A stretch of 4,613 nucleotides of DNA from a virus (taxonomy: Duplodnaviria > Heunggongvirae > Uroviricota > Caudoviricetes). The notes under the pieces were generated by a model. It was not told the origin of the DNA, did not search any database, and saw only the letters and a list, made by a program, of their open reading frames with translations. A program made the position numbers and the translations under genes. The stretch spans positions 1 to 4,613 of the IMG/VR virus record IMGVR_UViG_2731957954_000006; one strand, given 5' to 3'. Positions 3,825 to 4,613 of this stretch are shown piece after piece; positions within the stretch are counted from its first letter, which is position 1, and each line of letters starts with the position of its first letter.

Positions 3825-4010
3825 TTACTTAATTATGTAATTCATACCCGAACTCTCTGTTGACAGCCTTCTTCTGCAGGCTTCAATAACCCACGCTGAA
3901 AAGTTTCCTGAACCTTTCAGATCAAGAGCGATGTTAATTTGTTCAATCATCTGGTTTGGAAATCGGATGTTGCGGGTTGTTGTTCTGCGGGTTCTGTTCT
4001 TTGATGACAT
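3825..4010 (-). CDS. Small YlcI/YnfO-like (DUF3950-type) prophage protein, 61 aa
   Basis: Translation MSSKNRTRRTTTRNIRFPNQMIEQINIALDLKGSGNFSAWVIEACRRRLSTESSGMNYIIK resembles, from memory, the small proteins encoded next to Nu1 homologues in E. coli cryptic prophages (ylcI by nohD, ynfO by nohQ). A ribbon-helix-helix-like fold is possible. Confidence 0.6.
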   Translation of the reverse strand: MSSKNRTRRTTTRNIRFPNQMIEQINIALDLKGSGNFSAWVIEACRRRLSTESSGMNYIIK

Positions 4011-4165
4011 AACGTTTCCCCATATTCAGTGTTGCTGATTTGTATTATCTGAAGTTGCTTTTACGTTAATTTGACGCAGATCAATTAATACGATACCTGC
4101 GTCATAATTGATTATTTCTCGTGGTTTGATGGCGTACACACATGTTGTGATAAACCTTATATAGA

Positions 4166-4180
4166 TGATAATCATTATCA
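4166..4180. promoter_or_regulatory. Perfect 7-1-7 palindrome TGATAATCATTATCA, Fur-box-like
   Basis: Seen directly in the sequence; matches the Fur operator inverted-repeat model tGATAATnATTATCa. Further GATAA-type hexamers lie just upstream (TGTGATAAACC, TAGATGATAAT). It is about 37 bp left of cosN. Confidence 0.3.
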
Positions 4181-4204
4181 TTTCGTGGGTCCTTTCCGGC
4201 GATC

Positions 4205-4404
4205 CGACCGGTTACGGGGCGGCGACCTCGCGGTTTTTCACTATTTATGAAAATTTTTCAGGGAAAATCGTGTCGGTACTTCTCGAATATAACTTTTTGT
4301 TTTTTTTAATATTACATCCGTAAAGGTCCGACATGAAAGTGTCCGAAAATGCCTTTTTCTGGCGTTTTCATGTCGGGCCTTGTATTTGATAATGGGTTGT
4401 TTTC
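4205..4404 (+). other. cos: Lambda-type cohesive end site (cosN with flanking cosB)
   Basis: CGGTTACG|GGGCGGCGACCT|CGCGG matches the lambda cos junction, with the 12-nt cohesive end GGGCGGCGACCT at 4217-4228. The downstream CACTATTTATGAAAATTTTTCAGG matches the lambda cosB proximal region. The nu1 start follows at 4405. Confidence 0.85.
4324..4380. promoter_or_regulatory. Inverted repeat in cosB (candidate terminase small-subunit binding sites or RNA hairpin)
   Basis: AGGTCCGACATGAAA (4324-4338) and TTTCATGTCGGGCCT (4366-4380) are reverse complements at 14 of 15 positions, separated by 27 nt, about 25 bp upstream of the nu1 start. Confidence 0.35.
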
Positions 4405-4613
4405 ATGAAGGTTAATAAAAAGAGGCTTGCCGAAATTTTCAACGTGGACCCGCGGACGATTGAACGCTGGCAGTCTCAGGGACTCCCTTGCGCCTCCAAA
4501 GGTAGTAAGGGCATTGAATCTGTATTTGATACTGCCATGGCAATTCAGTGGTATGCGCAGAGGGAAACTGATATCGAAAACGAAAAGCTCCGCAAAGAAC
4601 TGGACGATTTGCG
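4405..4613 (+). CDS. nu1: Terminase small subunit Nu1 (N-terminal part; continues beyond window)
   Basis: Translation [69 protein letters not shown] aligns by eye with lambda Nu1 (MEVNKKQLADIFGASIRTIQNWQEQGMP ... IENEKLRREVEELR), including the winged-HTH region. Absent from the ORF track because it runs off the window end. Confidence 0.9.

Follow-up and report, generated by a model that had tools for sequence, protein, structure and literature searches.

A Fur operator at the left edge of a lambdoid packaging site is conserved across lambda-type cos sites

The packaging site of the lambdoid prophage studied here carries at its left edge a perfect 7-1-7 inverted repeat which, by its identity with sites bound in experiments, is a genuine Fur-binding sequence and an orthologue of the nohA and nohB operators of Escherichia coli K-12. 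Comparison of cos sites indicates that the palindrome is inherited with the cos module and not with the neighboring YlcI-like gene, a point that goes beyond the accessible literature. We favor, with modest confidence in the statement as a whole, the explanation that the palindrome is a high-affinity Fur operator that is kept by selection and silences stray transcription at the left edge of cos; within this explanation the binding of Fur is by far the firmer part, and the regulatory output is the more tentative one.

The window, i.e. the whole stretch of 4,613 nucleotides that was analyzed, has 100% identity with a lambdoid prophage of E. coli O104:H4, and this prophage appears to be intact rather than a cryptic remnant. 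According to the RefSeq annotation the gene order is holin, lysozyme, Rz-type lysis protein, a minus-strand gene of the YlcI/YnfO family, and the small and large subunits of terminase. On its left side the cos region resembles lambda (~87% identity to the lambda right end), and from position 4166 rightwards the window shares 98-99.7% identity with cos and gene 1 of phage 21 (Table 1). As compared with the lambda cos site studied by the Feiss laboratory, the cosQ sequence GGGTCCT, the cohesive end and the cosQ-cosN spacing are identical, the lambda record ending in GGTTACG, which directly precedes the cohesive-end sequence GGGCGGCGACCT, and lambda has the palindrome too. The terminase small subunit of the window corresponds to RefSeq entry WP_000867568.1, the same accession as that of C_RS07350 in strain CFT073.

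Table 1. Features of the cos region and its surroundings; positions refer to the window.
Feature	Position	Strand	Basis and remarks
YlcI/YnfO-family (DUF3950) gene	3825-4010	-	Pfam PF13132, E=9e-19, and RefSeq annotation; left neighbor of the palindrome
Sigma-70-like promoter candidate TTGTGA-16-GATAAT	4145-4172	+	9/12; -10 element = left arm of the operator
Weak partial half-site copy TGATAAACCTTATAT	4148-4162	.	10/14 against the 7-1-7 consensus
Fur operator, 7-1-7 inverted repeat TGATAAT-C-ATTATCA (TGATAATCATTATCA)	4166-4180	.	Exact match
cosQ (GGGTCCT), packaging-termination signal	4187-4193	+	Annotated as a 7-bp element in the phage 434 record; R4 of the phage 21 record maps to 4186-4197
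cosN cohesive-end sequence GGGCGGCGACCT	4217-4228	+	Cos cleavage/terminase region of phage 21 maps to 4200-4246
Phage-21-type cosB	I2 4246-4260, R3 4266-4281, I1 4288-4302, R2 4323-4338	+	M81255 annotation mapped with 0 mismatches
Phage-21-type cosB, remainder	R1 4366-4381, I0 4388-4402	+	M81255 annotation mapped with 0 mismatches
Terminase small subunit (phage 21 gp1 / Nu1 family)	4405-4613, cut by window end	+	Pfam Phage_Nu1, E=2.9e-28

The sequence TGATAATCATTATCA is identical on both strands apart from its centre base, and the perfect inverted repeat is wider than the 7-1-7 unit, extending as an 8-1-8 repeat over 4165-4181. The match to the 7-1-7 Fur consensus TGATAATNATTATCA is complete (14 of 14 specified positions), as had been claimed in a preliminary description of this DNA, and it lies far beyond chance, with 2.8e-5 exact sites expected per window from the base composition and none found when a 50-kb lambda prophage locus was shuffled 100 times. 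The best match of the window to the classical 19-bp Fur consensus GATAATGATAATCATTATC reaches 15/19, at 4161-4179. The palindrome lies 6 nt left of cosQ and about 36-37 nt left of the cohesive end at 4217, and its start is 156 nt from the ATG of the minus-strand YlcI-like gene, i.e. both distances given previously (~37 nt to cosN and ~156 nt to the ATG) are correct. The further claim that the palindrome is embedded in additional GATAA repeats holds for one partial copy, TGATAAACCTTAT, which lies 18 nt upstream at 4148-4160, and is slightly overstated in that this copy is weak. According to the alignment the copy arises from a 7-nt insertion relative to lambda, and it was missed in a scan for Fur sites that allowed up to 3 mismatches. 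Other kinds of element were considered and discarded at this position: Rfam returned nothing credible, and a loop of 1 nt does not allow a 7-bp A/U stem to form, ruling out an RNA element, and the three IHF sites of phage 21 (I2, I1 and I0 in Table 1) all map outside the palindrome. As a separate observation, the I0 site just upstream of gene 1 (4387-4402) starts with TGATAATG, an inverted copy of the right arm of the operator; this copy, 206 nt downstream of the operator, is half a Fur box only.

The same palindrome has been documented as a Fur site elsewhere. The window's exact 15-mer is found in lambda, at 48452-48466, and in the Qin prophage of K-12, and the variant in the K-12 prophage DLP12, which is carried by phage 434 as well (TGATAATTATTATCA), differs solely at the centre base. 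The 19-mer of the window, GATGATAATCATTATCATT, combines the centre base of Qin with the flank of DLP12 and has T rather than C at position +8. In the study of Chen et al. 2007 (PMC2189734) a Fur site of 22.3 bits was assigned to nohA at U00096.2 position 1634624, 233 nt from the nohA start at 1634391, and this position is exactly the centre C of the palindrome in Qin. The nohA oligonucleotide, with the identical 15-mer, was gel-shifted by 150 nM Fur, and the nohA fragment had been recovered earlier by the in vivo selection of Vassinova & Kozyrev 2000. The nohB site of DLP12, first found by the Fur titration assay of Stojiljkovic et al. 1994, scores 25.3 bits and forms the third strongest cluster in the K-12 genome, and a single 7-1-7 repeat is a sufficient, high-affinity site for a single Fur dimer, which shares its centre with the 19-bp model (all PMC2189734). 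The position is orthologous, too: like the sites of nohA and nohB (nohB/nohD), the palindrome lies between a DUF3950 gene and a gene for a Nu1 homologue, 232-233 nt from the ATG of the latter; what distinguishes the window is the 7-nt insertion that adjoins the site on the left, together with the phage-21-type cosB and terminase to its right. The identity of the Fur site is therefore already known, i.e. it is another copy of the nohA/nohB site documented from 1994 to 2007, and the palindrome is more than Fur-like, its 15-mer being identical with that of the gel-shifted and in vivo selected nohA site.

To compare cos sites, lambda-type sites were gathered from IMG/VR with the left half of cosN as anchor, a choice that is independent of the palindrome, and a panel of named phages was added; a scan of genome contigs with the cosN 15-mer GGTTACGGGGCGGCG gave chance hits only, in GC-rich genomes. 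Among 116 cos sites with a cosQ the 7-1-7 palindrome is perfect in 95, near-perfect (1-2 mismatches) in 16 and absent in 5, and the centre base of the 95 perfect sites is T in 75, C in 19 and A in one. In the named-phage panel the palindrome is kept in lambda and 434 and is perfect in phi80, mEp237 and mEp213, with one mismatch in HK225, two in phage 21 and three in N15. The left flanks of phi80, mEp237, mEp213, HK225, 21 and N15 are unrelated to that of lambda and mostly to one another, perfect copies thus occurring in at least four unrelated left contexts, no DUF3950 gene is found left of the palindrome in phi80, N15, 21, mEp237 or HK225, and BLAST alignments of diverged phages with the window start at the left edge of the palindrome. 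For nine lineage representatives the mean pairwise difference per site is 0.53 in the 5-nt left flank, 0.10 in the arms, 0.56 at the centre, 0.33 in the spacer between palindrome and cosQ, 0 in cosQ and 0.14 in the cosQ-cosN interval. Likewise, a single base substitution and two rare indel alleles were seen in the arms of 39 non-redundant lambda-type sequences, and the centre and four of the six spacer positions are variable, which corresponds to 1 of 14 variable columns in the arms versus 5 of 7 in centre plus spacer (p=0.0055). Conserved arms beside a free centre and a free spacer are the imprint of a dimer-binding site; a homology block that decays at its edge would leave another pattern. 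As the arms agree with the Fur consensus in full, the simplest reading of this lineage-independent conservation is selection for Fur binding, and the data fit the earlier suggestion that the packaging site has captured a host transcription-factor site.

A side result of the comparison concerns mEp213 and mEp237, which have the left flank, the palindrome and cosQ in common and diverge completely between cosQ and cosN as well as in the cohesive end, placing a recombination joint inside cos, right of cosQ.

The palindrome differs from the defined subsites of cos in how it is kept. GGGTCCT is invariant in all collected cos sites and is separated from cosN by 27 nt in 121 of 122 sites, and the distance from the palindrome to cosQ is 3, 5, 6, 7 or 8 nt, mostly 5-6. 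Moreover, the palindrome is absent, with cosQ-cosN kept, from phage 1W, whose cosB is of the same 21-type as that of the window, from a class of prophages with a lambda-type Nu1 and gpA (L047 and its relatives), from Salmonella Gifsy-1 and from the Enterobacter N15-like phage MStein-2023a, and no displaced Fur-like site was found within 600 nt in any of these. Since the spacing is loose and phages with an intact cosQ-cosN go without the palindrome, the alternative in the preliminary description that it is part of cosQ is not supported; it is a separate sequence outside the subsites defined for lambda. Conserved and found in lambda too, it is nevertheless an accessory that some natural lambda-type cos modules do without. 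In saturation mutagenesis Wieczorek and Feiss reportedly confined cosQ to 7 bp only in 2001, and the cosQ-cosN interval is said to tolerate substitutions.

Occupancy and expression in vivo can be followed in the accessible supplements of a nine-strain Fur ChIP-exo and RNA-seq study (PMC10164565). In CFT073 these list an iron-replete, single-copy Fur ChIP-exo peak at 1424699-1424711, which falls on the phage-21-type version of the palindrome (TGATAATTATTCTCG), 5 nt from cosQ. The genes on both sides of this peak were assigned to the Fur regulon, with log2 changes of +2.95, +2.33, +1.34 and +2.13 in the fur mutant, and the leftward unit adjoining the site (TU53 of the authors) is 5- to 8-fold up. 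The lists for MG1655 and W3110 hold no peak at the cos palindromes of DLP12 or Qin, and that for BL21(DE3) holds none at the palindrome of lambda DE3, the exact palindrome of this prophage, at 768425-768439, lying within a peak-free interval. Multimapping is an unlikely cause of the missing K-12 peaks, as the surroundings of the site in DLP12 and Qin can be told apart by a difference every 8-15 nt. Expression of adjacent genes in fur mutants, as given in the same supplements, is up in CFT073, unchanged in MG1655 (nohD and nohA) and down in W3110, where ybcV, ybcW, ylcI, nohD, ynfO and ydfO all fall by log2 -2 to -5 at very low counts (PMC10164565, Dataset 3). As appY changes greatly as well, being 16-fold down in the W3110 mutant (Dataset 3), the data suggest that the W3110 drops reflect a strain effect; they could be a strain artefact or could stem from Fur-dependent anti-silencing. 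The accessible MG1655 data are without such drops, except for borD, which is ~2-fold down. The CFT073 derepression, in turn, could be indirect, e.g. through more spontaneous prophage induction in the fur mutant. Counting the positive multicopy selections and the CFT073 peak, the capacity of the element to bind Fur is established; for occupancy in single copy and for a regulatory output the evidence is mixed. The classical Fur boxes at the promoters of iron-uptake genes (e.g. fhuA, fepA-fes, cirA, ryhB) share the 7-1-7 / 9-1-9 consensus with the cos palindrome, the information score of the latter being comparable or higher. However, these boxes overlap strong promoters, are bound in every ChIP-exo data set and show large derepression, whereas the cos palindrome has weak promoter-like neighbors, patchy occupancy and an inconsistent output.

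Close to the CFT073 peak we noticed a 108-aa open reading frame, C_RS07335 (L256 18655-18981), with a TonB C-terminal domain (Pfam PF03544, E=7e-13). It lies ~0.7 kb left of the cos site of the CFT073 prophage, in the phage-21-type left flank, and would be an iron-related extra gene beside the Fur site.

In the explanation we favor, one Fe2+-Fur dimer would occupy the 7-1-7 repeat, possibly accompanied by a second one on weak flanking hexamers, and the operator would constitute an accessory element at the left edge of lambda-type cos, Fur binding being, as we infer, the property under selection. Bound Fur would occlude weak AT-rich promoter-like sequences that overlap the arms, and the occluded transcription would run mainly rightward, through cosQ-cosN-cosB and into the terminase genes, and possibly leftward too. 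Stray transcription around cos would be low in an iron-replete lysogen and would be relieved upon inactivation of Fur. Besides the candidate in Table 1, which uses the left arm, the commonest variant of the palindrome, the DLP12/434 type, has a rightward match, GTGACA-16-TATCAT (10/12), which uses the right arm, and the sigma-70-like scan gave no candidate at the site in lambda/Qin or CFT073. The window contains 2 promoter-like matches, with 1.6 expected by chance. Because such matches are not more frequent than in shuffled sequence, the proposed promoter occlusion draws mainly on the CFT073 data and on the usual mode of Fur action. What speaks against the explanation we favor is that the accessible ChIP-exo lists of MG1655, W3110 and BL21(DE3) have no peaks at lambda-type sites, that loss of fur leaves nohD and nohA unchanged in MG1655 and lowers the flanking genes in W3110, that the promoters are weak and variant-specific, that the CFT073 derepression could be indirect, and that some phages are missing the element.

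Downstream of these candidates the 21-type cosN (CGGGGCGGCGACCTCG followed by CGGTTTTTCA; 4215-4230, with a T-run to 4240) was flagged as intrinsic-terminator-like on the plus strand, as was its counterpart at L006 743-758; the lambda/DLP12 version of cosN was not flagged. A transcript from the promoter candidates at the Fur box would reach this terminator-like element after ~45 nt.

Several other explanations deserve consideration, one of which assigns the palindrome to packaging itself. When bound by Fur, or by a phage protein of like specificity, the palindrome might modulate the recognition of the terminal cos, e.g. as a 'speed bump' for the motor, since terminase approaches cosQ from the side on which the site lies, immediately upstream, and transcriptional effects would then be incidental. 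This is in line with the inheritance of the palindrome together with cosQ-cosN rather than with flanking genes, always 3-8 nt left of cosQ, with the start of homology between diverged phages at its left edge, and with the plasmid inserts of the Feiss laboratory that represent a 'complete cos' and begin at lambda 48446, just left of the palindrome. Recognition of cosQ is also said to vary with the state of the packaging motor, as Cue and Feiss (in 1997) and Wieczorek and colleagues (in 2002) reportedly found. Nevertheless, we regard a role in packaging as rather unlikely: the spacing to cosQ varies by 1-5 nt where cosQ-cosN is fixed, phage 1W and the L047-class prophages with lambda Nu1 have the same terminase types and neither the palindrome nor a displaced copy, the palindrome goes unmentioned in the accessible packaging literature, and the mutagenesis that reportedly limited cosQ to 7 bp counts against it as well. 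More far-reaching, and in our view quite doubtful, is the proposal that host Fur is a hitherto overlooked accessory factor of lambdoid cos and that Fe2+-Fur, sitting 5-6 bp upstream of cosQ, couples virion production to iron status; it might do so by pausing the incoming packaging motor for the recognition of cosQ-cosN, or by controlling whether transcription passes through cos to the terminase and head genes, and the coupling to iron would be the reason why phages retain the operator. The titration of Fur by replicating phage DNA seems implausible on quantitative grounds, since about 100-200 phage genome copies would face thousands of Fur molecules per cell.

The palindrome might also be a functionless passenger which binds Fur and merely rides in a young, often exchanged cos block, its match to the Fur consensus being a historical accident. 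The absence of single-copy peaks at lambda-type sites from the accessible lists of three strains, the inconsistent effect on expression and the loss of the palindrome from several phages all agree with this, and the arms are about as conserved as the cosQ-cosN interval. We still consider a passenger unlikely, as the conservation profile is non-monotonic, with a variable centre and spacer between the conserved arms and cosQ, as the base that varies freely (T, C or A), that of the centre, is the very one on which Fur places no requirement, as an accidental 14/14 match to a host operator would arise only about 3e-5 times per window, and as perfect copies persist across the unrelated left contexts. 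The remaining explanation, put forward in the preliminary description, sees in the palindrome an iron-responsive operator of the minus-strand YlcI-like gene. Its location upstream of the ATG and the upregulation of the leftward TU53 next to the site in the CFT073 fur mutant, as listed in the accessible supplements, are what one would expect of such an operator. However, no minus-strand promoter toward the gene was found in the window, the palindrome is conserved in the five phages named above that have no adjacent DUF3950 gene, and ylcI and ynfO of K-12 are not derepressed in the accessible data, both falling, with very low counts, in the fur mutant of W3110; a specific tie to this gene is accordingly improbable. 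The persistence of the palindrome without a ylcI-like gene nearby also makes the YlcI-like protein an unlikely binder of the palindrome.

Concerning the YlcI-like protein itself, a sequence comparison with the PDB gave no relative; inspection by eye suggests a resemblance of the N-terminal strand and two helices to a ribbon-helix-helix DNA binder. In lambda, the minus strand at 48109-48303 (L003 1141-1335) codes for a 64-aa YlcI/YnfO (DUF3950) homologue, which lacks annotation in the RefSeq record NC_001416; the equivalent gene is annotated in the record of phage 434.

As a Fur site the palindrome is nothing new; what the comparison shows is that a strong E. coli Fur operator is located at the left edge of the lambda-type packaging site. 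The operator that lambda and many of its relatives retain beside cos is among the strongest Fur operators known from E. coli DNA, which is under-appreciated, and the accessible literature on packaging and on Fur does not draw the link between the operator and the packaging site. If Fur bound there affects the termination of packaging or late/terminase transcription, this would constitute a new host input into a textbook system, a point that could be tested cheaply with the existing genetics of lambda. If, on the other hand, the operator is functionless, it would usefully illustrate that a conserved transcription-factor site can score at the top and yet have no regulatory output.
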